Shown one piece after another: positions 483-51,960 of a DNA stretch of 64,000 nt. The notes below the pieces were generated by a model, which did not search any database, had not been told where the DNA came from, and was given only the letters and a program-made list of their open reading frames with translations. Position 1 is the first letter of the stretch; the number at the start of each line of letters is the position of its first letter. The stretch comes from Candidatus Parcubacteria bacterium (GTDB lineage Bacteria > Patescibacteriota > Minisyncoccia > Phycocordibacterales > CAIJYI01), in contig JAPLYL010000006.1 of assembly GCA_026395595.1 (NCBI GenBank), positions 12,146-76,145 of the forward strand, in the 5' to 3' direction. A program made the position numbers and the translations under genes.

Positions 483-938
483 ATGAAAAGAGAAGATAAA
501 GATACTCAACAACCTCAAGCTGTTGTTCGTGAGATTAACGGTCAATTAGTACTGGATGACCCCCTTGCTCTGAGCATGTTCCGTGCTGTGGAAAAGCACA
601 ACTGTAAGAATACACTGGAATTGAATTCTGAACGTGTTAAAAACTTTAAGCAACGAGTGATTGAACGCGGGATGACGGCAGAACAAGTCGTAATTATTCT
701 TCTGAACGTCGATGATACGAATGGTGGAGAGATCGCCAAAATGTTGATGCCCGGATTCAATTGGCAAGAAATTCGCGATAAAGGAGAAGTTCCATTTACA
801 CGAGGACTTGCAGGTCGCGAAGGTATCCAAGAGGTGCTTGAAGCTTTCGATGAAGAAGCAGCAGCAAAGTTGCGAGAAATGAAACAGGTCGCCGTTGTGG
901 TTGTTGACCATGGGGTCGCGGAAGTTTTTGAGGCGTAA
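483..938 (+). CDS. hypothetical protein (151 aa)
   Basis: ORF with GAGGAG Shine-Dalgarno 6 nt upstream; followed by a rho-independent terminator. Confidence 0.6.
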   Translation: MKREDKDTQQPQAVVREINGQLVLDDPLALSMFRAVEKHNCKNTLELNSERVKNFKQRVIERGMTAEQVVIILLNVDDTNGGEIAKMLMPGFNWQEIRDKGEVPFTRGLAGREGIQEVLEAFDEEAAAKLREMKQVAVVVVDHGVAEVFEA

Positions 939-960
939 TCTCAATCGAATAATTATCAGT

Positions 961-998
961 GTCGTACTTTTGAATAGTACGACACTTTTTTATTTTTT
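961..998 (+). terminator. rho-independent terminator
   Basis: GTCGTACT-TTTGAA-TAGTACGAC hairpin followed by a T-run. Confidence 0.7.
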
Positions 999-1161
999 AA
1001 CCTTAAAATCTCCGCCAATCTGGCAGATTCCAACACAAATTTGTTCCAAAATAAAATACTCGAGTCCTCTCTGTTAAACGGAAGAGACAGAAATACCTTT
1101 TTTGTTTTTTTGGAATAATATATTCGTTGACTGGATATAACTATTGTTATAAAATGTAGGC

Positions 1162-1533
1162 GTGGATAACAAAAACGAAATTGAAGAATTATTTAAAAAA
1201 TATAATGACGAAATGAAACGCCATACGAATGCTCTCAGTGAGGAATTTCAGAGCAGACTTTCAGCTGTCGCGGAAGGGGTTGTCGGTTTAGGTGAAAAAT
1301 TTGATTTACTGAAAGAAAATGTTGGCCTGCTTAATGAAAAAGTTGATAGAATTGAACAGGTTCAAAATTTGCACACCGAGATATTGAATGAACATACCAA
1401 AAAATTAGACTCGCACACGGAAATGATCGGTGGACAAATGGAAGATACTTCTGAAACAAAAATTGAACTTGAAAATAAGGTTGACAAAAAAGAGTTTATT
1501 GAATTAAAACAAACGGTTTTGGCGATGGCTTAA
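1162..1533 (+). CDS. hypothetical coiled-coil protein (GTG start)
   Basis: Heptad-rich, charged sequence; ORF followed by a hairpin terminator at 1570-1594. Confidence 0.45.
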   Translation: MDNKNEIEELFKKYNDEMKRHTNALSEEFQSRLSAVAEGVVGLGEKFDLLKENVGLLNEKVDRIEQVQNLHTEILNEHTKKLDSHTEMIGGQMEDTSETKIELENKVDKKEFIELKQTVLAMA

Positions 1534-1569
1534 TTTTAAAACTCTCGAAAGATTCGCTTCTTAACAAAA

Positions 1570-1594
1570 GTCGCCAGGGGGCGATTTTTGTTTC
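1570..1594 (+). terminator. rho-independent terminator
   Basis: GTCGCC-AGGG-GGCGA hairpin plus TTTTTGTTT. Confidence 0.5.
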
Positions 1595-1664
1595 CCAAGA
1601 AAAGGGGATAAGTTTTATGGAAGAGGTTTCCTGAATTTGATATAATACTCATGCGAGTATTCTC

Positions 1665-2258
1665 ATGAATTTATCACCCTCACAAAAAAAAGGTTTTACT
1701 TTTATTGAACTGGCGGTCACCGTCGGTGTTTTTGCCATACTCTCCACTCTTGCGGTGGGAAATTTCCGCAATACCACGAAAGCCTTGTCTTTAAATTCGC
1801 TTGCCAATCTTATCGCTTCCGATATTCGCCGCGCTCAAGTCAAAGGTATTTCAAATCAATCCTATCCGGGCACAAACTATATCGCCCCAGCAATCGGCAT
1901 TTCTTTTGATACGACCTATGTGACTGCTTACATGATGTTTTCTGATACTGATGGAAACTTTATAAACAACAACCTCGGGGCTGCCTGTGCGGGAGAATGC
2001 ACTGAAAGGCTCGTCATTAAAGATGGGAGTAAGATATCCCATATTTACGCAAAACGAACCGCCGGTGGAACGATTAAAAGCCTTGACTCTCTCCATTTTA
2101 CTTTTCAGCGTCCAGACCCGGAACCGATGATAAAAGGAAAAGAAAACGACCTAATAACCCGCGATTACTACTATGCGGAAATTTGGCTGACGTCAAAAGA
2201 TAATCTTCTTACCAAAAAAATCATTGTTTGGAAAACAGGAATGGTGGCAATTCAATAA
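1665..2258 (+). CDS. type IV pilin-like protein (prepilin-type N-terminal cleavage/methylation domain)
   Basis: N-terminus KKGFTFIELAVTVGVFAIL: G^F cleavage site, Glu at +5, hydrophobic helix. Confidence 0.7.
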   Translation: MNLSPSQKKGFTFIELAVTVGVFAILSTLAVGNFRNTTKALSLNSLANLIASDIRRAQVKGISNQSYPGTNYIAPAIGISFDTTYVTAYMMFSDTDGNFINNNLGAACAGECTERLVIKDGSKISHIYAKRTAGGTIKSLDSLHFTFQRPDPEPMIKGKENDLITRDYYYAEIWLTSKDNLLTKKIIVWKTGMVAIQ

Positions 2259-2295
2259 AAATAAAACCGTGATATCATTTCCTCAAAAAAAAATT

Positions 2296-2883
2296 ATGCG
2301 GAGACGCGCAGCAGACGGTGGATTCACAATCGTTGAACTCTTGGTATCCGTCGCGCTTTTTGCCACCGTAATCATTGCCGTTTCCGGTTCATTTCTTGTT
2401 ATTGTTGATTCGTATAAAAAAATAACGGCGCAAAGAGAAAACATAGACAACCTTTCCACCTCTCTGGAAAGCATGGTACGCGGGTTAAAAACAGGTATGA
2501 ACTTCCATTGCGAAGTTACTCCTCCTGCTTCTGCTCCTGCTGATATTGCAACGCCGAGAGACTGCGCTTCTGGAGGAAAATATATTGCCTTTAAACGGGT
2601 GACGGACAACAATATCATCCAATACAAATTTGAAAGCGGTCGGTTGTGGCGCTCCGACAATTTCGCAACTTTTTATCCGGTAACCGATGACCCGAGTATT
2701 ATGCAGGTCGGCCTCTTTAATTTTTATGTTGTCGGCACAACCCCTCTTACTGATACGGGAGTTGATATCACTCAACCTAAAGTAAACATTGTCATGAAAG
2801 GTACGGTCGGCGGACAGCTAAAACGTTCTTCTTCTTTCAATATCCAAACGACCATCACTCAAAGACGCCCCGACATTCAATAA
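2296..2883 (+). CDS. type IV pilin/pseudopilin-like protein
   Basis: N-terminus RRRAADGGFTIVELLVSVALFA, a prepilin motif; the start is moved to the ATG after the upstream overlap. Confidence 0.65.
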   Translation: MRRRAADGGFTIVELLVSVALFATVIIAVSGSFLVIVDSYKKITAQRENIDNLSTSLESMVRGLKTGMNFHCEVTPPASAPADIATPRDCASGGKYIAFKRVTDNNIIQYKFESGRLWRSDNFATFYPVTDDPSIMQVGLFNFYVVGTTPLTDTGVDITQPKVNIVMKGTVGGQLKRSSSFNIQTTITQRRPDIQ

Positions 2884-2910
2884 CTCATCGTTTCAATCTG
2901 TGTAATAAAA

Positions 2911-3483
2911 ATGAATAATCACAAAGGAAAAAGAAATATACGTGGTGGAGGATTTATTATGGTAGAAATGCTGGTCGCCATATCCCTTATCTTGCTGGTT
3001 CTTCCGGGAGCTCTTTCTATTGCCATGAAATCCATAAGCTTGAGTACCTACCAGAAAGATCAGCTTATTGCGACCTATCTTGCGGAAGAGGGACAAGAAC
3101 TTCTACGAAGCGTTCGCGATAAAAATGTTTTGACTGTTGTACGCGACGGTTCCGGTGCATGGAATACTGGTTTTAGTGGTTGGAGTTGCAACGCTACTGC
3201 CTGCAAAATAGATCTCAGTGAAGCGATAACAGCCGGTGCTGGAAATTTGGAAACTCTGACAAGTGCGCCGAATGCTACGTATCGTCTGTATCTTGATGCA
3301 AACGGTTTTTATACCCATACTTCGGCCGGAAATACGCCGACCCCGTTTTATCGCGGGATATTTATTACGCCCGTCGGAGGTCTCGGAGATCAGGTTTCTG
3401 TTCGGTCAGTTGTTGTTTGGAAAACAACCTTCGGAAGGAAAAAAGTTACTTCATCAGGCTTTCTTGCTTATTGGTTGCGATAA
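2911..3483 (+). CDS. type IV pilin/pseudopilin-like protein
   Basis: N-terminus GGGFIMVEMLVAISLILL, a prepilin motif. Confidence 0.6.
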   Translation: MNNHKGKRNIRGGGFIMVEMLVAISLILLVLPGALSIAMKSISLSTYQKDQLIATYLAEEGQELLRSVRDKNVLTVVRDGSGAWNTGFSGWSCNATACKIDLSEAITAGAGNLETLTSAPNATYRLYLDANGFYTHTSAGNTPTPFYRGIFITPVGGLGDQVSVRSVVVWKTTFGRKKVTSSGFLAYWLR

Positions 3484-3563
3484 AATTTATCTCACGCTTT
3501 ATGTTCCATTTCCACCACTATCATAAAAAAAGAAAAGACTCCGAAAATACTCGCGGATTTTTG

Positions 3564-4097
3564 ATGATGTACGCCATACTATTTATTACGGTGGTGCTCA
3601 CTATCGCTATGGGAATACTTGATATCGCTCTCAAACAATTTTCCATCTCTTCCATAAACCGAGAATCCTCCCGCGCTCTCTATGCCGCCGATGCCGGATT
3701 GGAATGTACTCTCTACGGAGACATTTACAATAAAAATTTTTCCACAACAACTCCGGCCGGAGTTCCTCTTGCTGTTGACGGCAGTGGGGCTTTGTTGAAA
3801 AGCAACGTTACTCTTTGCAGTGGAAATGTCGTTGATCTTTTTACTCCCAACCCAAATCCCGGTTCGGGCGGAACCATTACGTGGACGGAAAATCCGCCCG
3901 CCAATGGATTTAAAATTAAGTTCGGTTCTGGTACGGATCTTGTATGCGGAACGGTAATTGTTACAAAAAGTATAGGAGCGAACGGAACTCTTTTGCAAAC
4001 CACTGTTAACTCTCGCGGATATAATACTGATTGCCCCGATAACCCCACTCCGGCCCGTTTGCCTCGCGTTGAAAGAGGACTCAAAGCCACTTACTAA
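3564..4097 (+). CDS. membrane-anchored pilus-associated protein (no canonical G^F site)
   Basis: N-terminal TM helix MMYAILFITVVLTIAMGIL; same strand and cluster as three pilin-like genes; start adjusted to avoid overlap. Confidence 0.4.
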   Translation: MMYAILFITVVLTIAMGILDIALKQFSISSINRESSRALYAADAGLECTLYGDIYNKNFSTTTPAGVPLAVDGSGALLKSNVTLCSGNVVDLFTPNPNPGSGGTITWTENPPANGFKIKFGSGTDLVCGTVIVTKSIGANGTLLQTTVNSRGYNTDCPDNPTPARLPRVERGLKATY

Positions 4098-4110
4098 AAA
4101 TATAAAAAGA

Positions 4111-4140
4111 AAAGGCGCCGCAGAACGGCGCCTTTTTGTC
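4111..4140. terminator. bidirectional rho-independent terminator
   Basis: AGGCGCCG-CAGA-ACGGCGCCT hairpin flanked by an A-run and a T-run between convergent genes. Confidence 0.7.
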
Positions 4141-4154
4141 TTTATTCAAAAACC

Positions 4155-4547
4155 TTATCCGATAGTGACAATGCTTGAAAAGTGGTAGAATAGCAGACCG
4201 CCAACTATGGTTGCGATTATGATAATAGCAGCAATCCAGTTGAATACCTTGGAGGCAACCCTCTTTGGAGCGCGTCCCCAGTGTTCTTCTCCCGTCGGCA
4301 TCATTTTATAAATGAACGGATAGATCAGGAAGATAAGCAGAGCGGTTATCCAAGGCGTTATCATGGAGAAATGCGCATTGAGCGGTGATGTGTAATAAAA
4401 CATCAAAAACATTCCCGCAATAACGACCCCGATCAGCCAGCCGGCTGTATTATCGTTTTCAAAGCCGTTGGCAAGGCGTTTATACCAAGTCGTTACGTCC
4501 AGCAAACTAAAGGTTTTTTCAAAAAAAATGTTAAGGTACTTCTTCAT
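4155..4547 (-). CDS. hypothetical membrane protein
   Basis: ORF-track ORF 4155..4616; start moved to the internal Met (MKKYLNIFF) that has GGAGG 7 nt upstream; 3-4 TM helices. Confidence 0.5.
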   Translation of the reverse strand: MKKYLNIFFEKTFSLLDVTTWYKRLANGFENDNTAGWLIGVVIAGMFLMFYYTSPLNAHFSMITPWITALLIFLIYPFIYKMMPTGEEHWGRAPKRVASKVFNWIAAIIIIATIVGGLLFYHFSSIVTIG

Positions 4548-4924
4548 GTCTTTTCCTCCATCTTCGGAAAGGTGAGTGCCTATCTTTTTCATATCACAAA
4601 AGTTAAAAGAGCGCAAGTCACTGCTTCGTCAAGACTTATGAGCGGAGTAAGCCCTATAAAAAACGACCCGATAAAGGGTCGTTTTGAGGTTAAAAAAATA
4701 AAAGAACCATATGTTTCCTCAGAGATAATCCATAAATAATGAGCGATGCAGTCGTATATCCTATTGCTCTACTTTGATCTATTCCAAAAGAGGTATCGCG
4801 TCCATTCCTCCGACGACAATTTCGACGCCGGTTAATCCAGCCACTGGTGGGTGCGTTTTTGAGATCAGTAAACTGAAATAAAGAAAAATAATTTACCCGG
4901 ATATTATCAAATAACAGCATTATC

Positions 4925-4954
4925 TTGACAAATGACTGATTTAGTATCTATAAT
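4925..4954 (+). promoter_or_regulatory. sigma70-like promoter (TTGACA-18-TATAAT)
   Basis: Consensus -35 and -10 hexamers about 70 bp upstream of the 5024 start. Confidence 0.55.
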
Positions 4955-5023
4955 GAACCTCGGAAACGAAAAGGAAGTTCTCTTTCAAAAACAGTGTTTT
5001 CACCCGAAAGGAGGGTATTGAAA

Positions 5024-5506
5024 ATGGCAGCACAAAAAACAAAAAAAAGTCCCGCATTGATTCTTGCGATCTTAGGATTTTTCTTGGCATTCTTCGTCTT
5101 TGGAATGTTCCTTCTCATGGTACATCCCGAGATAGAAGATGCGATGATGGCTCAAAAACGAACCGAAGAAAATTTTGCAACATCACTGGTGAAGCAGACT
5201 CCGTCTCAAGCTCATTTATTTCCCGTCACGATTACCGTTCCTTATAAAACGGTAAATGGCGCTCCTCAATTGAGAGATGTTATTGTCTACGGTTACGGCG
5301 TAGCTTTGGACGGCAGCAAATGCGTTCAATTCTATAACGTCGCTAGCACGAAGAATGATATTATCAAACAAGTATGTCTCATTCCCAAAAAAGAAGTAAT
5401 CCATAGAACGCCATGGACTTCAAAAGTTGTGAAGTCTGTCGGTTCATGGGCAATATGGGACGAAATCGCCAAATTCTCCCATAGCGGATATTATTTCTAC
5501 CAATAA
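5024..5506 (+). CDS. hypothetical membrane-anchored protein
   Basis: AGGAGGG Shine-Dalgarno 7 nt upstream of ATG; N-terminal TM helix; terminator downstream. Confidence 0.55.
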   Translation: MAAQKTKKSPALILAILGFFLAFFVFGMFLLMVHPEIEDAMMAQKRTEENFATSLVKQTPSQAHLFPVTITVPYKTVNGAPQLRDVIVYGYGVALDGSKCVQFYNVASTKNDIIKQVCLIPKKEVIHRTPWTSKVVKSVGSWAIWDEIAKFSHSGYYFYQ

Positions 5507-13954: not shown

Positions 13955-14365
13955 ATGATTTACGATTTAAGATTTATGAATGACGACGACAAAAAAATAC
14001 GGGAATTTACTGATTTGAATGCTTGGAAAGAATCTCATAAAATTGTATTGCTAACATACGCAATAACAAAAACATTCCCAAAAACAGAAACATTCGGTTT
14101 ACAAAGTCAGATGCAACGAGCAGTAATTTCAATAACATCAAATATTGCAGAAGGATTTGGAAGACAAGGTTATAAAGAAAAAATACAATTTTATTACATG
14201 GCGCAAGGTTCGTTAACGGAATTAAAAAATCAATATATTGCCGCAAAAGATATAGGATATATGGATGTAAAAGAGTATGAAAAAGTATTGGATCAGATGA
14301 ATATAGCCCATAGAGTCCTTCAGGGTTTAATAACAAAATCAAAAACTTTCATAAATCATAAATAG
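13955..14365 (+). CDS. four-helix-bundle protein (23S rRNA intervening-sequence protein family, TIGR02436/PF05635-like), inserted between atpG and atpD
   Basis: AWKESHKIVLLTYAITKTFPKTETFGLQSQMQRAVISITSNIAEGFGR...QFYYMAQGSLTELKNQ matches the family signature; alternative start ATG 13976. Confidence 0.8.
   Translation: MIYDLRFMNDDDKKIREFTDLNAWKESHKIVLLTYAITKTFPKTETFGLQSQMQRAVISITSNIAEGFGRQGYKEKIQFYYMAQGSLTELKNQYIAAKDIGYMDVKEYEKVLDQMNIAHRVLQGLITKSKTFINHK
13957..13979 (+). repeat. tandem heptamers GATTTAC/GATTTAA/GATTTAT, the inverted partner of 14380-14411
   Basis: Its reverse complement CATAAATCTTAAATCGTAAATC matches the downstream CTTAAATCATAAATC (14 of 15). Confidence 0.55.
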
Positions 14366-15782: not shown

Positions 15783-15833
15783 GGTTTTAGGTTTTAGATT
15801 GACGACGTTGACAAATAAGCACTGAGCGGAATC

Positions 15834-15948
15834 AAGGGCAGTCCTTGAGGAGGAGTGTAGCGAAGCGAAACGACGGGGCGACCTGAATTTTAACGACCGG
15901 AGGGAGTATAAAATTGGAAGTACTCTTGTGGTGAAAGAACTGCCCTTG
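15834..15948 (+). repeat. diverged copy (C) of a structured repeat element; 9-bp closing stem CAAGGGCAG/CTGCCCTTG
   Basis: Core GAGGAGGAGTGTAGCGAAGCGAAACGACGGGG homologous to copies at 51859-51960 and 61525-61626; flanked by an 11-bp direct repeat GTTTTAGATTG (15791-15801 and 16018-16028). Confidence 0.5.
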
Positions 15949-16009
15949 GTGCAGCGGGCTTAAAAAAATCGCCCCCGCCGTAAAAACGGAAAAAAAAAGA
16001 TTTATTTAG

Positions 16010-16165
16010 TTACTTTTGTTTTAGATTGTTAGCCCCCACTTTGTAAGAGTAACTCCGTAAATAACCAAAAAAGATTACCGAGACGATAACACCTGCCACT
16101 AAGGAATACATATACAAAGATGACAAGCCGAGAAGAACAATGATTGCAATTAAACTTTCTTTCAT
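16010..16165 (-). CDS. small hydrophobic ORF (51 aa)
   Basis: GGAG 8 nt upstream of ATG; MKESLIAIIVLLGLSSLYMYSLVAGVIVSVIFFGY...; not in ORF track. Confidence 0.25.
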   Translation of the reverse strand: MKESLIAIIVLLGLSSLYMYSLVAGVIVSVIFFGYLRSYSYKVGANNLKQK

Positions 16166-16271
16166 GACACATTCTCCAATTAATTAATGAAAAAACTCCT
16201 GTAAAAAATCCTAACGCCATATATATAATTTATTATTACTTGTCAAGTATCTTAATAGAATCTAAAAACGA

Positions 16272-16676
16272 ATGAAAAAAGATTTTCAAAAATGGCATGC
16301 ACGAAAAGAAAAGCTGAACGAAAAAGAAAATCGTTTGTTTTTTCATGTTCGCGAAATATGGTATTGTTCGCTTGGCGCAAATGTCGGTTTTGAAACAGAC
16401 GGAAAGGGCGAGGATTTTTTGCGTCCCGTCGTTATCGTGAGAAAGTTTAATAATGAAATTTTTTGGGCTGTTCCGCTTACCAAATCAAAAAAACCGATTC
16501 CTAAAAAAACTGAAAAATATTATTTTGCTTTTTCTTTTGTTCCGGAAGTAAAAAGTTTGGCGGTGTTGTCGCAGTTACGGCTTGTTGATGCGTCTCGTTT
16601 GGCTCGTCATGTCGGAGAAATAAACGAAGCGGAGTTTGGGGAATTAACAAAAAAGCTCAAGGCATTGCTGCCATGA
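16272..16676 (+). CDS. MazF/PemK-family endoribonuclease toxin-like protein, inserted between atpD and atpC
   Basis: REIWYCSLGANVGFETDGKGEDFLRPVVIVRKFNNEIFWAVPLTKSKK... aligns with the PemK/MazF pattern GEIWLVSLDPTAGHEQQGTRPVLIV...VVPVTS; C-terminal LVDASRLARHVGEINEAEFGEL matches too. Confidence 0.6.
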   Translation: MKKDFQKWHARKEKLNEKENRLFFHVREIWYCSLGANVGFETDGKGEDFLRPVVIVRKFNNEIFWAVPLTKSKKPIPKKTEKYYFAFSFVPEVKSLAVLSQLRLVDASRLARHVGEINEAEFGELTKKLKALLP

Positions 16677-23687: not shown

Positions 23688-23933
23688 TTATTCTTTATTT
23701 ATCATTCTCTCTTTTTCTTCTCTTTTCATTTTTTTTATTTTTGCTTCTTCTTTGGAAGCTTCGCTGCGGTTTTCGTATTTTTTTGCATACGCCAAAACGA
23801 CGGGACGACGGCCTTTGGTGTATTTGGCACCGAGAGGTGAACTATTGTGTTCTTCTAGTCTGCGATTAAGATCAGTAGTGATTCCGCAATAAAAACTTCC
23901 ATCAGCACATTTGAGAAGATAGACATAATACAT
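23688..23933 (-). CDS. GIY-YIG nuclease family protein
   Basis: YVYLLKCADGSFYCGITTDLNRRLEEHN motif. Confidence 0.7.
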   Translation of the reverse strand: MYYVYLLKCADGSFYCGITTDLNRRLEEHNSSPLGAKYTKGRRPVVLAYAKKYENRSEASKEEAKIKKMKREEKERMINKE

Positions 23934-24305
23934 TTATTTTTTTCTCTTGAACCTGAGGAGATGAAGGTGATAGTGTTCTACGCTTTTCATATGAGCGAAA
24001 TTCTCCCAGATAAAATCATATTTCTTTTCTCTGGTAAGTTGACGGGTTTTTATATGAACGAGTTCCGCTCTCTCCTCTTCAGTCATTTCAGATTCTTTTT
24101 TGAAGTGGCGTTTCGGAATAATAAGATCGTGTTCTTCCGCAATGCGGTCGTAAGGGAATATATTTTTCAGTATCTTCCAGTGGGTAAAAATACATTTTTT
24201 GTTATCTGGATTTTCAACGCAAAAATCACACTTTGACTTTTTGTCATTCGCACCTTCCCTATATCGATGATATTTTTCAAGCGTTCTTTTTGTTCTAAAA
24301 TTCAT
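23934..24305 (-). CDS. HIT-family (histidine triad) hydrolase-like protein
   Basis: C-terminal HYHLHLL (H-phi-H-phi-H-phi-phi) motif. Confidence 0.45.
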   Translation of the reverse strand: MNFRTKRTLEKYHRYREGANDKKSKCDFCVENPDNKKCIFTHWKILKNIFPYDRIAEEHDLIIPKRHFKKESEMTEEERAELVHIKTRQLTREKKYDFIWENFAHMKSVEHYHLHLLRFKRKK

Positions 24306-37614: not shown

Positions 37615-38025
37615 ATGAATTATGTTTTGTATATTTTCGGAGTTTTTGGAATCGTCCTTTATCTTTGGTGCGGGTATTATGTAAGCGGAAAAATATATGA
37701 TTTATATTACGCTGCTAAAAAACCGTCATGGTTGATACGATTTTTGGTCTGGCCAATAGCGACTATCAGCGATAGACGAAATTTGAAAAATGATGACTGG
37801 CGGTATCAAAAATCAGATTGGGAAGATTGCTACGCTTATCTGCTTCCGAATCGGACAACAAGAGATCAATACATTTCCATAATGATGATACTGTGGGGAG
37901 TTAAAATTGTATGGAATCTGATTATTTTTTCACTTATTTTTTTCTTGCTCTTGATGGCGCCGATAGGAGCGGGTCTTGCCTTAGCAATAGCGATACCGCT
38001 CAAAAAACTTATCGGACGCGAATGA
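37615..38025 (+). CDS. hypothetical membrane protein
   Basis: ORF with TM helices at both ends. Confidence 0.4.
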   Translation: MNYVLYIFGVFGIVLYLWCGYYVSGKIYDLYYAAKKPSWLIRFLVWPIATISDRRNLKNDDWRYQKSDWEDCYAYLLPNRTTRDQYISIMMILWGVKIVWNLIIFSLIFFLLLMAPIGAGLALAIAIPLKKLIGRE

Positions 38026-38085
38026 ATACTAAAAACACGGGGACGCAACAGCGCTTCCGTGTTTTTTAATACTTTGAAACAGCTT

Positions 38086-39186
38086 TTATTTTACAAACAG
38101 CGTCCAGACGTCATGGAAGGTAATGACCAATATCAGTCCGAGGAGGACGACAAAACCGATGGAATGTGCAAGATTGGCCGTTTGCGCTTTTATGGGCGAG
38201 CGTTTGATTGCTTCAATGAGGGTAAAGAAAATGCGCCCGCCGTCCAACGCGGGAATCGGCAGAATGTTGATAACGGCAAGATTGATGGAAATAAGAGCCG
38301 TGAGAGAGATGAGATACGTAACGCCAAGCTGGCTCGCGTCGCCCACTATTTTCACGATACCGACCGGACCAGAAACGGAAGACATATCCGCTTTGCCGCG
38401 GAAGGCTGAAATAAGAAGATCGTATAACCCCTTGAAAGTTTCTCCGGTGTATATAATCGTTAATTTCCCTCCTTCATATATCGCTCGATGAAGCGGGAGC
38501 TTCATGACTCCGACCATATCCATACCGATTCCGATGGCAGATTTTCCGTCCACTATTCCCTTCTTTGGGATTACCGTCACGTTCTTTTCTTCAGATCCAC
38601 GTTTTAAGAGAACGGAAATTTCTTGCGCTCCATGTTCGTCAACGAATTTCTGAAAAACTTCCGTCGTTACTTTTGAGAGAGTTTGATTTTGATAGGAAAG
38701 GGAAAGTATTTTATCTCCCGTTTGTATTCCTGCCAATTTTGCCGGCGAATCTTTCATAACTTCAACCACCGTAAGAGAAGCATTGCTTACTGCTCCGGCA
38801 GAAAGCTGGTCAGAAGCAGAAGAAGGCAAACCGATAAGAAATCCGGAAGTGATAAGAGCCCAAGCAAAAAGCAAATTGAAAAATACCCCGGCGGAAAGAA
38901 CCGCCACCTGAATGAGTTTCGGTTTATGGGAAAAACTTTTTTTGCTTTCAACTCCGTTCTTCGCTACCTCTTCGGGGTCTTCTCCGAATATCTTCACAAA
39001 ACCGCCAAAAGGAATAGCGTTTATGGTGTATTCCGTTTCTCCATATTTTTTTCCGTACAATTTTGGAGGGAAACCGATACCGAATTCGTCCACCCGTATC
39101 CCGCTTTTTTTGGCAACAATAAAATGCCCGAACTCGTGAACGAGAATCAATACCGCGAGGATGATAATAAAAATGAGAATGTTCAT
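38086..39186 (-). CDS. rseP: RIP metalloprotease RseP (site-2 protease, M50 family)
   Basis: HEFGHF zinc motif in TM1, PDZ domain, LDGG motif. Confidence 0.8.
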   Translation of the reverse strand: MNILIFIIILAVLILVHEFGHFIVAKKSGIRVDEFGIGFPPKLYGKKYGETEYTINAIPFGGFVKIFGEDPEEVAKNGVESKKSFSHKPKLIQVAVLSAGVFFNLLFAWALITSGFLIGLPSSASDQLSAGAVSNASLTVVEVMKDSPAKLAGIQTGDKILSLSYQNQTLSKVTTEVFQKFVDEHGAQEISVLLKRGSEEKNVTVIPKKGIVDGKSAIGIGMDMVGVMKLPLHRAIYEGGKLTIIYTGETFKGLYDLLISAFRGKADMSSVSGPVGIVKIVGDASQLGVTYLISLTALISINLAVINILPIPALDGGRIFFTLIEAIKRSPIKAQTANLAHSIGFVVLLGLILVITFHDVWTLFVK

Positions 39187-40831: not shown

Positions 40832-41374
40832 TTACGAAAGAGACCCCTGTGCGGTTTTGTCCACACCGGGGGCTTTTTCTTTTCTTTTTTCAATAAAACC
40901 ACGCACCCCGTCTAAATATGTTATGGGGGTATTAGTCCTTTTTAGTAAAACCGAGCATTGCTCTTTTCTATGAGGTGAAAGAATAATGCGAAGTTTTTTT
41001 CGCTCGTGCAAAAAATTCACCATACCCGCATAATCTCCATCGCTGGAAACGATAACCAATTGTTCCGCATCGCTTTCAAAAACATCTTTTACAGAATGCA
41101 ATACGAGGTCGGCATCACAATTTCCTTTTATTTTTTCTTCTCCGTCGTATACGGTTTCTTTAAATATTAAAACGAACCCTGCTTCTTGGAGATAGACATA
41201 AAGCTCCTTATATTTTGGTATCAATCCAATAAATAAATACGCACGTGTTACGCCATATTTTTCCGTAAGCCACACACGAAAACGGGCATAATCAAGTTTC
41301 CAGCCCAAACTATCTATTCCTTTATGCAAGTTTGCTCCGTCTATATAGGCATAATTATTTCGTTTTGGTTTCAT
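40832..41374 (-). CDS. NYN-domain (LabA-like) putative RNase
   Basis: AYIDGANL, DADL and SSDGDY acidic motifs. Confidence 0.55.
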   Translation of the reverse strand: MKPKRNNYAYIDGANLHKGIDSLGWKLDYARFRVWLTEKYGVTRAYLFIGLIPKYKELYVYLQEAGFVLIFKETVYDGEEKIKGNCDADLVLHSVKDVFESDAEQLVIVSSDGDYAGMVNFLHERKKLRIILSPHRKEQCSVLLKRTNTPITYLDGVRGFIEKRKEKAPGVDKTAQGSLS

Positions 41375-41880
41375 GAGTTGTCTTTACTCGTAAGTTTCTC
41401 AAGTTCCTTGAAGATTTTATCGTTAAAATTATTCGGTTTGAGTTTTAAAATAGCTTCAGCATTTTTTAAACAGTACAAAAGTTGCTCTTTATTGTCTTGA
41501 GAAGAATACCATTTAAAGCCATCAATAATATCAGCTGTTTTTACAATAAGAGCCTCTTCTCCATTTTGTACACAGCGGGAAATTAACTCAGTTGTCTTTT
41601 CTCCTTTTTTAAAATCTTTTGTACTCGCAAGCACCAGTTTTGTAATGCGGTCTCCAAATTCTTTTTTTAGGAATGATTCGTCGATATTGAACCACTCTAT
41701 GGCATCATGTAAAATTCCAGACAAGACAATGTGCTCAGGATATTTATTTTCGTAAAGATAAACACCAACGCGAATATCATGAAATAAAACAGGTTTTCTT
41801 GCGTGATCATCAACGGGAGGCAAATGTGCGGATAAAAGCTGCACGGCTTTTTCAAATGAGGCGCCAAATGTTTCTTTCAT
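41371..41880 (-). CDS. HD-domain phosphohydrolase
   Basis: FHD...GILHDAIE...D motifs; 4-bp overlap (ATGA) with the downstream NYN gene. Confidence 0.5.
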   Translation of the reverse strand: MKETFGASFEKAVQLLSAHLPPVDDHARKPVLFHDIRVGVYLYENKYPEHIVLSGILHDAIEWFNIDESFLKKEFGDRITKLVLASTKDFKKGEKTTELISRCVQNGEEALIVKTADIIDGFKWYSSQDNKEQLLYCLKNAEAILKLKPNNFNDKIFKELEKLTSKDNS

Positions 41881-41930
41881 AGTTAAAGGGGTCAGGTACG
41901 ATTGTTTTGTAAAATCTATGTTGTAATTTC

Positions 41931-42944
41931 TTATCTTTTTGCGATAATGCTCTTCTTGTATACTTCAATATGTTCCAGCGCTATTCCCGTTCCTTTGGAA
42001 ACGCAGTAGAGGGCATCTTCGGCGAGACGGGCTTTGACTCCGGTTTTTCGGAAAACGAGTTCCGGCAGGTTGCGGAGCATGGAAGAACCTCCGGTCATAA
42101 TAATGCCTTGGTCAATAATGTCGGCGGAAAGCTCTGGGGGAGTTTCTTGCAAAACATCTTTAATGGCTTTCACGATTTCAATAAGTTCCATCTGAATGGC
42201 TTTCACGATTTCATTCGTTCCGATGCTGGCAGAGCGAGGAAGTCCGGAAATAAAATCGCGTCCTTTGATGATGAGAAAAATTTCTTCTTCAAGCGGAATA
42301 GCGGAACCGATTTTCATTTTTATCGTTTCGGATGTTTTATCTCCTACCGCAAGATTGAAAACTTTTTTGATGTAGTCGGCAATAGCTCGGTCTATTTTAT
42401 CCCCGGCACACTTCACGGATTTTGATGCGACAATACCTCCGAGAGAAATCACGGCAACGTCGGTCGTTCCCCCTCCGATATCCACTACCATATGTCCGCA
42501 CGGTTCTTGAATCGGTATTCCCGCGCCAATAGCCGCGAGTATCGGCTCTTTCACGACGTACGCATTTTTCGCGCCCGCTTTTATGGCCGCTTCCACCACC
42601 GCGCGCCGTTCGGTTGAGGTAACTCCTGCCGGAACGGAAATCATGACCTCCGGTTTAAAAAGACTCCATTTCCCGAGCGCTTTATTGATGAAATACCGCA
42701 GCATAGCTTCGGTAACGCGATAATCGGCAATAACTCCATCACGCATAGGCCGATAGGCGATGATGTCGTCAGGCGTTCGACCGACCATATGTTTGGCATC
42801 AATACCGACGGCAAGAATTTTATTAGTGTGGGGAGAAACCGCTACCACGGAAGGCTCATTCAGAACGATTCCCTTTCCCGGCATAAACACAAGCGTATTC
42901 GCCGTCCCGAGATCTATCCCCAATTTATTCGTAAAAAGCGACAT
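41931..42944 (-). CDS. MreB-like actin homolog (second paralog)
   Basis: LGIDLGTANTLVFM, DIGGGTTD motifs; start trimmed to Met34 of the track ORF. Confidence 0.75.
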   Translation of the reverse strand: MSLFTNKLGIDLGTANTLVFMPGKGIVLNEPSVVAVSPHTNKILAVGIDAKHMVGRTPDDIIAYRPMRDGVIADYRVTEAMLRYFINKALGKWSLFKPEVMISVPAGVTSTERRAVVEAAIKAGAKNAYVVKEPILAAIGAGIPIQEPCGHMVVDIGGGTTDVAVISLGGIVASKSVKCAGDKIDRAIADYIKKVFNLAVGDKTSETIKMKIGSAIPLEEEIFLIIKGRDFISGLPRSASIGTNEIVKAIQMELIEIVKAIKDVLQETPPELSADIIDQGIIMTGGSSMLRNLPELVFRKTGVKARLAEDALYCVSKGTGIALEHIEVYKKSIIAKR

Positions 42945-47031: not shown

Positions 47032-47414
47032 ATAATTTTCCGATAAAGAATAATAACTATTTGATTATATCATATATGCTATACAGAGCAAGAAAGAAGG
47101 GTAACTCCTCGTCGCCGTTTCGGGGTTGCACCCCGAAACGAAACATTTGGATAACACAATAAAGTTCCGCTTAAAAATTAAAATTTATTTTGTCACACAA
47201 ATATTTCGGACCGAGGTACAACCTCAGTCCGGCAATAAATATAGTTATATTTTATAAGGAATGAGCAGTTACAAAGAAGGAATTTGACAAAAGAGTTTTC
47301 CAAAGGTAGATTGTGCTTAGAAAAGCGCTGCTTTTACACTTGTAGTTTGGCCCTGTTATCGTATAATGAAAGACCGATATCAAGAATTTATTTTTACTCT
47401 ATTTAGCAACCATC

Positions 47415-51854: not shown

Positions 51855-51858
51855 TTTG

Positions 51859-51960
51859 TTAAAGAAATCACAGACGGAGGTCTTTCCTTAAAGAGGAACG
51901 CAGCGAAGCGTAGTGACGGGGAAAGGAGAGACCTCGGGTAGTGATTTCGGTTAGAACAAT
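51859..51960 (+). repeat. structured repeat element, copy A
   Basis: ~90% identical to copy B (61525-61626); outer stem GAAATCAC/GTGATTTC; inner 11-bp stem GGTCTTTCCTT/AAGGAGAGACC; loop AAGAGGAACGCAGCGAAGCGTAGTGACGGGG. Confidence 0.6.

Follow-up and report, generated by a model that had tools for sequence, protein, structure and literature searches.

Three repeats of roughly 100 nt in a 64,000-nt stretch of DNA from a Candidatus Parcubacteria bacterium (hereafter the window) belong, with a probability of about 0.6, to a family of small, mobile hairpin elements of candidate-phyla-radiation (CPR; Parcubacteria) bacteria that had not been described before. With the same probability, the family consists of small, non-coding, non-autonomous MITE-like mobile elements of the Paceibacteria/Nomurabacteria lineage that carry a conserved core recognized by its structure. 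The genomes of CPR bacteria are tiny, and the mobile DNA and non-coding RNA that they contain have hardly been explored. In this family, hairpins that may be selfish or regulatory appear to have inserted into essential operons, namely atp, suf and that of an ABC exporter, and the insertions bring in Shine-Dalgarno-like sequences and stop codons along with stable hairpins in the RNA.

The three copies, here called A, B and C, had been proposed in an earlier note on this DNA, and all of them were present. The shared core GYAGCGAAGCGNANYGACGGGG occurred three times in the window, always on the + strand, compared to 0.01 occurrences expected from shuffled sequences. Copies A and B, estimated before as about 90% identical, differed at 8 of 86 positions when counted over the hairpin (about 91% identity). 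Their outer stems, GAAATCAC/GTGATTTC and AAAATCGC/GCGATTTT, were two compensated pairs apart, in agreement with the covariation that had been described, and the inner stem GGTCTTTCCTT/AAGGAGAGACC of both copies included a T.G pair, seen previously as a G-U pair. What had been taken for a loop of about 30 nt above the inner stem is instead a third, irregular helix (P3). Copy C was correctly described as keeping the core with a closing stem that differs from those of A and B, but a 55-nt insert at 15879-15933 had been left unseparated from the rest of the copy. When the whole window was scanned with a covariance model with the filters off, only A, B and C were recovered, at the scores given below; the runner-up independent site scored 21 bits, and a 27-bit match was the reverse strand of copy A. 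The features of the three copies are as follows.

Copy A, short form: 51855..51960, + strand, antisense to both neighbouring genes, model score 106 bits
Copy A, P1: 51864-51871 paired with 51941-51948
Copy A, internal loop: AGA where the other copies have a GGA-type loop
Copy A, P2: 51875-51889 paired with 51923-51937
Copy A, purine loops: 51890-51894 on the 5′ side and 51918-51922 on the 3′ side
Copy A, apical helix P3: 51895-51917, with the GCGAAGC cap at 51903-51909
Copy A, conserved 3′ tail GGTTAGAACAAT: 51949-51960
Copy B, left target-site duplication GTTATGAGTAAA: 61506..61517, + strand, present a single time in each empty site
Copy B, 109-bp insertion: 61518..61626, + strand, sense relative to the neighbouring genes, model score 105 bits
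Copy B, P1: 61528-61536 paired with 61606-61614
Copy B, P2: 61540-61554 paired with 61588-61602
Copy B, P3: 61560-61582
Copy B, 3′ tail GGTTAGCACAAT: ending at 61626
Copy B, right target-site duplication GTTATGAATAAA: 61627..61638, + strand
Copy C, GAGCGGAAYCAAGG subfamily: 15783..15962, + strand, between atpD and atpC, model score 48 bits
Copy C, 5′ extension: (GGTTTTAG)n followed by ACGACG
Copy C, hairpin: 15818-15962, with the core at 15850-15878
Copy C, P2: 15833-15844 paired with 15937-15948
Copy C, 55-nt insert: 15879..15933, + strand, exactly between GACGGGG and AAAG
Near copy C, 11-bp repeat GTTTTAGATTG: 15791-15801 and 16018-16028, + strand

Public data yielded about 70 more distinct copies, almost all from low-GC Paceibacterota/Nomurabacteria genomes and groundwater metagenomes, whereas the window itself held none beyond the three; a search for more copies elsewhere had been proposed as a check. 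Loci or contigs outside the window that carry copies or orthologous sites are given L-numbers (L001, L002 and so on). A strict core pattern matched nine copies in the MAGs of two species representatives, one from Paceibacterota and one from Nomurabacteria, and gave one chance match in Streptomyces. With a slightly looser pattern, 85 metagenome contigs were retrieved, with about 65 distinct true members on low-GC contigs and the remainder unrelated. The covariance model, applied to 439 kb (61 loci and the window), gave 83 matches at E <= 0.001, including the window's three copies and weak or partial ones; several matches had diverged apices. There were three copies in the 64-kb window and at least five in each of the two MAGs, and three scans of viral contigs gave no match. 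At 90-190 bp, non-coding and dispersed, the element falls within the size and copy range of MITEs (below about 500 bp). The family had been thought absent from Rfam, and this held: at the gathering threshold, Rfam 15 matched only tRNA in the window and 15 loci, and copy A as a query at E <= 10 returned just two noise matches. Full-text literature, looked up by topic and by sequence string, contained no description of the family.

An alignment of 59 copies showed that the conserved unit, about 90 nt long, folds as a rod. At its base, P1 of about 8 bp is followed by an internal loop (5′ GGA and 3′ GNA) and by P2 of 13 bp. Above P2 lies an invariant purine-rich internal loop, with (U)AAGGA on the 5′ side and GGGGA on the 3′ side, for which a kink-turn is possible on paper, and then a G-C pair and P3. 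The 5′ loop and the end of P2 read UAAGGAGG, which contains a UAA stop codon and which we take to be a perfect complement of the 16S rRNA 3′ tail, that is, a perfect Shine-Dalgarno sequence. The apical P3 usually reads GA-NN-GNA-GCGAAGC-GNA-NN-GA, where the two NN positions co-vary (AC/GT, GT/AC, AT/AT and GC/GC). Its length is variable, from the short GC-GYA-GC (a 7-nt mini-hairpin) over the canonical 23 nt and up to about 50 nt, and the flanks AAGGAG and CGGGGAA are fixed at every length. The short and canonical apices (GCGAAGC, GCGCAGC and GCGTAGC) all match GCGNAGC, the 'mini-hairpin DNA' motif, whose stability is far higher in DNA than in RNA and which is found at phage ssDNA priming origins (PMC13037366).

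RNAalifold predicted 17 pairs, 12 of them with compensatory changes, and 22 of 27 pairs were altered on both sides among 82 distinct copies. The named structure paired in 83% of the cells on the MAFFT alignment and in 87% (86.7%) on the model alignment, compared to 37-48% in slid controls, and none of 500 shuffles attained the observed values. Among the 59 sequences there were 34 distinct P2 helices. The stem sequences drift freely yet stay paired, and the loops are fixed. The fixed purine loops, set against the drifting stems, suggest that something reads the structure; a transposase, a reverse transcriptase, a nuclease or an RNA-binding protein could be that reader, and naming it would reveal CPR biology that annotation has missed. 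The covariation that is expected for a conserved secondary structure in a structured-ncRNA gene was found.

The insertion of copy B could be compared with empty sites. Copy B is located 3′ of a MacB/FtsX permease gene (60293-61516), and its site was empty in four close relatives (L096, L097, L098 and L100) whose FtsX permeases are 87-92% identical to that of the window. In these relatives the spacer after FtsX is 23-33 bp long and contains GTTA(C/T)GAATAA once, compared to a spacer of 146 bp in the window, where GTTATGAGTAAA, the 109-bp element and GTTATGAATAAA follow one another. Because the empty sites in the four relatives carry the sequence once, the direct repeat noticed earlier around copy B is a genuine target-site duplication, and the left copy does take in the TAA stop codon of the permease gene, as had been stated. 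By this sequence comparison, copy B is validated as a recent insertion with a 12-bp target duplication.

Other sites also differed between close relatives. Copy A, which is situated between a SufS-like aminotransferase gene and a gene for a 476-aa protein without assigned function, both on the - strand, was shared with the orthologous locus L002, and its site was empty in L100, where the spacer from SufS to the next gene is just 28 bp. The window was empty at 23933, where L019 has a clean insertion of about 103 bp; the ORF upstream of this inserted copy (L019 4954-5340) runs into the element and ends at the TAA of CCTTAAGG, and the readthrough replaces the last residues of the window orthologue, a HIT-domain protein (23934-24305). 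At 38021-38103 the window has a short spacer; that of L061 is longer, holds a hairpin copy and has diverged in the remainder. In all, three window sites were empty where relatives have a copy or a hairpin-containing segment. More filled and empty pairs were found among the loci (L091/L007, L086/L005 and L086/L088), and about 43 kb of close-relative sequence contained zero copies. A comparison of L061 with window positions 41374-41931 was rejected as a clean empty site because the gene content differs. Copies are gained and lost between close relatives, giving the presence/absence polymorphism at orthologous sites that is looked for in MITEs. These polymorphisms and the duplication at copy B support the earlier proposal of a small, non-autonomous MITE-like element. 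Since the covariance model is supported by about 70 members and insertions are polymorphic between close relatives, the family could also be used as a strain-level marker.

The 12-bp duplication at copy B was the only validated one. A systematic flanking duplication was not found, with 6 of 72 copies at p <= 0.05 compared to 3.6 expected, and four other insertions that were compared with empty or near-empty orthologous sites showed no recognizable duplication. L080 has a candidate 10-bp flanking repeat. A 9-bp repeat at L027 was rejected as a target duplication, being internal and part of the conserved arm of a composite element (see below). The 11-bp repeat GTTTTAGATTG that had been reported to flank copy C exists, but its 5′ copy lies inside an extension common to L056, L028 and L032, contigs in which no similarity to the window was otherwise detected. 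Furthermore, the three orthologous atp loci (copy C has orthologues in L079 and L001) are all occupied, each with a different variant. For these two reasons the repeat cannot be called as a target duplication, and judging from the sequences it probably is not one.

The copies occupied operon spacers and the ends of genes. They pointed either way relative to the host genes, and copies of both orientations were equally well conserved. Between co-directional genes, 20 copies were in sense (mean model score 94.6 bits) and 12 in antisense orientation (94.9 bits; p = 0.22 for the difference in number); 11 copies were located between convergent genes and 4 between divergent genes. Scans for promoter and terminator motifs at copies A and B found none at the elements. 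Signs of steady transcription of one functional strand, from a promoter and terminator or through a fixed orientation, as expected of a structured-ncRNA gene, were thus not seen. Clustering of 319 ORFs near copies revealed no recurrent partner gene; the top clusters were RarA, ATPase, RecA, FtsK and similar. Among the 69 ORFs of 90 aa or more in the window, none encoded a transposase, integrase, reverse-transcriptase, HUH or Y1_Tnp domain.

Because no such domain was found in the window, the element would be moved by an enzyme encoded elsewhere. This enzyme may recognize the folded core as a single strand, of DNA or RNA, rather than as a duplex sequence; conservation of the structure and the loops, and not of the stem sequence, would follow from such single-strand recognition. 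Once inserted, the element would be co-transcribed with the host operon and add a very stable hairpin to the mRNA, with predicted energies of -25 to -38 kcal/mol whichever strand is transcribed. The hairpin of a copy in sense would expose the Shine-Dalgarno sequence of UAAGGAGG and the UAA stop codon, and could thereby affect how the mRNA is processed or translated, or change the C-terminus of the protein encoded upstream. Counting against a MITE-like element are the flanking repeats, which are barely above chance, the missing clear terminal repeats at A and B, and the partner enzyme, for which no candidate was found. No known mechanism of transposition accounts for the invariant purine loops.

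The core was found in at least three outer shells: composites of about 190 bp, the short form of A and B, and the 5′-extended form of C. Many copies in other genomes form the centre of the composites, whose terminal inverted repeats are TATACCATCTCCAATTAACC / GGTTAATTGGAGATGGTATA in some and GTATCTCCTCACACCCC with its complement in others. These repeats are absent from A and B and had no match anywhere in the window; clear terminal inverted repeats of another kind are likewise lacking in the short forms A and B, and no autonomous IS was found. In several composites (L014, L090, L067, L008, L080 and L070) the inverted repeats end in ..GATGGTATAAT, which, when read outward, is an extended -10 promoter motif (TGnTATAAT) at both ends, and most of these composites were located between convergent genes.

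An alternative in which mobility is secondary is that the family is a host-functional, multi-copy structured RNA, cis-regulatory or protein-binding, that spread by duplication; its GA-rich loops and capped apex would bind a protein or the ribosome, with UAAGGAGG complementary to the 16S rRNA 3′ tail. We regard this as unlikely, while giving it more weight than any other alternative. The strong covariation, the invariant loops and the apical helix of variable length are features that many bona fide RNAs share. The purine strand is also the more stable one: on the + strand, copies A and B fold at -37.8 kcal/mol (z = -6.8) and -38.0 kcal/mol (z = -5.7), compared to -32.3 and -24.5 kcal/mol for their complementary strands. 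In P2, G.U wobbles outnumbered A.C by 50 to 19, as expected if RNA is the working form, but a single inherited position supplies 25 of the 50 G.U cases and likewise one position 12 of the 19 A.C cases, so that about half of each count comes from one position and the asymmetry is ambiguous as a strand test.

The orthologous pair of copy A and L002 also speaks for the structured RNA, and it counts against seeing the family purely as dead MITEs. The two hairpins are 89.5% identical, compared to 64-70% at the third codon positions of the flanking genes, so that the copy changed at about a third of the rate of nearby neutral sites, and 6 of the 9 hairpin differences are compensatory. This looks like selection on structure at a fixed locus, or like gene conversion between copies; the slow evolution favours a host-level or RNA function unless gene conversion explains it. 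On the other side, 12 of the 32 copies in co-directional operons are antisense with undiminished conservation, A and B lack promoter and terminator motifs, close relatives lack copies at the same sites with nothing in place of them, and copy B has a target duplication. Covariation alone leaves RNA or single-stranded DNA as the working form, and a single-stranded DNA hairpin fits equally well: the better folding of the purine strand and the excess of G.U over A.C speak for RNA, and the GCGNAGC apex and the indifference to orientation speak for DNA. Of the earlier argument from covariation to a structured RNA, the covarying nested stems therefore stand, but they do not establish RNA as the working form, since both orientations are equally conserved.

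If the hairpin instead acts in DNA metabolism in the form of single-stranded DNA, it could serve as a signal for priming or for keeping SSB off, or as a site for an HUH/Y1 nuclease as in REP/RAYT and IS200/IS605-like systems, a reading that we consider improbable. It would account for the apices GCGAAGC, GCGCAGC and GCGTAGC, which fit mini-hairpin DNA (PMC13037366), for an orientation that is independent of transcription, for the missing target duplication at most insertions, and for the apex module that is also found in unrelated repeat families of higher-GC bacteria. The orientation of the copies relative to local GC skew was, however, balanced (23 against 22), with no link to the direction of replication, which argues against a function tied to the lagging-strand template. 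The 12-bp duplication of copy B does not suit HUH-type insertion, no Y1/HUH gene was found in the window, and a hairpin of 90-110 nt with two internal loops is unlike the REPs of about 35 nt.

A further idea, which we offer as speculation with a small chance of being right, is that the purine loops and the GCGNAGC apex form a portable recognition module for an undescribed mobilization or processing machinery, which would make the element SINE-like or a structure-guided RNA or ssDNA. The core would then be copied by an enzyme that reads its shape, or have a catalytic or protein-sponge activity of its own. This idea is based on the occurrence of the CPR core in at least three shells and on the apex module, which, from sequence matches, appears to be common to unrelated repeat families in other, higher-GC (soil) bacteria.

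Chance similarity, low-complexity sequence or an assembly artefact can practically be discarded, as we found no point in its support, and it is opposed by the excess of the core over shuffles (3 against 0.01), by about 70 independent copies across many samples and assemblies, and by covariation controls far under the observed values. Several known systems were set aside because copy number, anatomy or the absence of partner genes did not fit; these were SRP RNA, attC sites, the hairpin ribozyme, twister-sister, IS110 bridge RNA, TIGR arrays and CsrA sponges.

Among known repeats, the Correia elements of Neisseria (CREE/NEMIS) and the MITEs ERIC/IRU, RUP and BOX are non-coding, multi-copy and co-transcribed elements of about 100-150 bp. 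They insert, pointing either way, into the spacers of operons and the ends of genes, fold over their whole length into a long hairpin, are polymorphic in presence and absence and have a target duplication. The present element shares the placement in either orientation, the insertion polymorphism and, once, the target duplication, but it is unrelated in sequence and belongs to another phylum. Furthermore, it is the central core with its fixed purine loops and covarying stems that is conserved here, not terminal inverted repeats, and this core occurs in several outer shells. Correia elements duplicate TA, in contrast to the 12 bp in the one validated case here.

REP/BIME repeats, which depend on RAYT Y1/HUH enzymes, and the palindromes derived from IS200/IS605 are likewise extragenic hairpin repeats recognized by structure. 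They resemble the present element in their enrichment at 3′ ends and between convergent genes (here 11 convergent against 4 divergent) and in that most insertions lack a target duplication. REPs, however, are imperfect palindromes of about 35 nt (20-40 nt) that carry a conserved 5′ GTAG and mostly come in inverted pairs, whereas the present hairpin has 86-110 nt, two internal loops, solitary copies and one 12-bp duplication, and is thus not a REP; GTAG was present only within the 3′ J1/2 loop of some subfamilies. The Rickettsia palindromic elements (RPE) are also small palindromic mobile elements of reduced genomes, with insertions at coding ends that alter the protein, as in L019 here, but they typically lie in frame within genes and show no similarity to the present element in sequence or structure. 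Mini-hairpin DNA (GCGNAGC; Hirao; PMC13037366) forms the apex of almost every present copy, but it is a 7-nt feature of physical chemistry and not a repeat family, and here it caps a far larger conserved structure. The family is, by this comparison, a MITE/REP-like repeat set apart by a central, structure-constrained core that is shared between shells.

Further small repeats were found within and next to the copies. The 55-nt insert of copy C (CGACC..AAAATTGGAAGTACTCTTGTGGTG) recurred at the same point in L025, L039 and L086 (7845-7903), so that its hosts are four copies from two hairpin subfamilies, and in L091 it was reversed and placed 7 nt further along. None of these five cases showed a target duplication. 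The insert must be a very small mobile element nested in the hairpin, or else an optional domain of the structure. A third palindrome, the GC-rich TCCTCCAGCGGGAGGATCCGCCCGCTGGAGGA, was located just upstream of two hairpin copies and inside a third (L028, L032 and L067 4098-4205). Since the 55-nt insert and this palindrome occur in or beside copies, several small palindromic elements appear to nest in one another.

The apex module mentioned above is a segment of about 30 nt, GAGGA-NN-GN-AGCGAAGCG-NA-NN-GACG with complementary NN/NN, and was found inside unrelated multi-copy repeats in L054 (four copies), L037 (three copies), L084, L042/L049 and L012/L043. An example is GTCATTCC-[module]-GGAATCTGCTG. 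The contigs are mostly of higher GC (about 0.56), with L012 at 0.44.

A second, unrelated palindromic family, in which ..CGCCGTTTCGGGGTTGCACCCCGAAACGAAAC.. pairs with an inverted partner about 90 nt away, was seen at 47108-47240 in the window and at L001 1244-1343, L079 1375-1477 and L015 2526-2538. In L001 and L079 it adjoins the hairpin element between atpD and atpC.

Elsewhere in the window, seven consecutive ORFs of 123-226 aa (483-5503) had no Pfam match at E <= 1e-5. Within 16031-16676, the atpD-atpC spacer that holds copy C has two ORFs, a small membrane-like one on the reverse strand and one for a PemK/MazF-family toxin (16272-16676), and the content of this spacer differs in relatives. 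Between atpG and atpD, the window has an ORF of the '23S rRNA intervening sequence protein' or bAvd-like type (13955-14365), and in L001 the atpG-atpD spacer is 813 bp long and holds a copy of the hairpin element.
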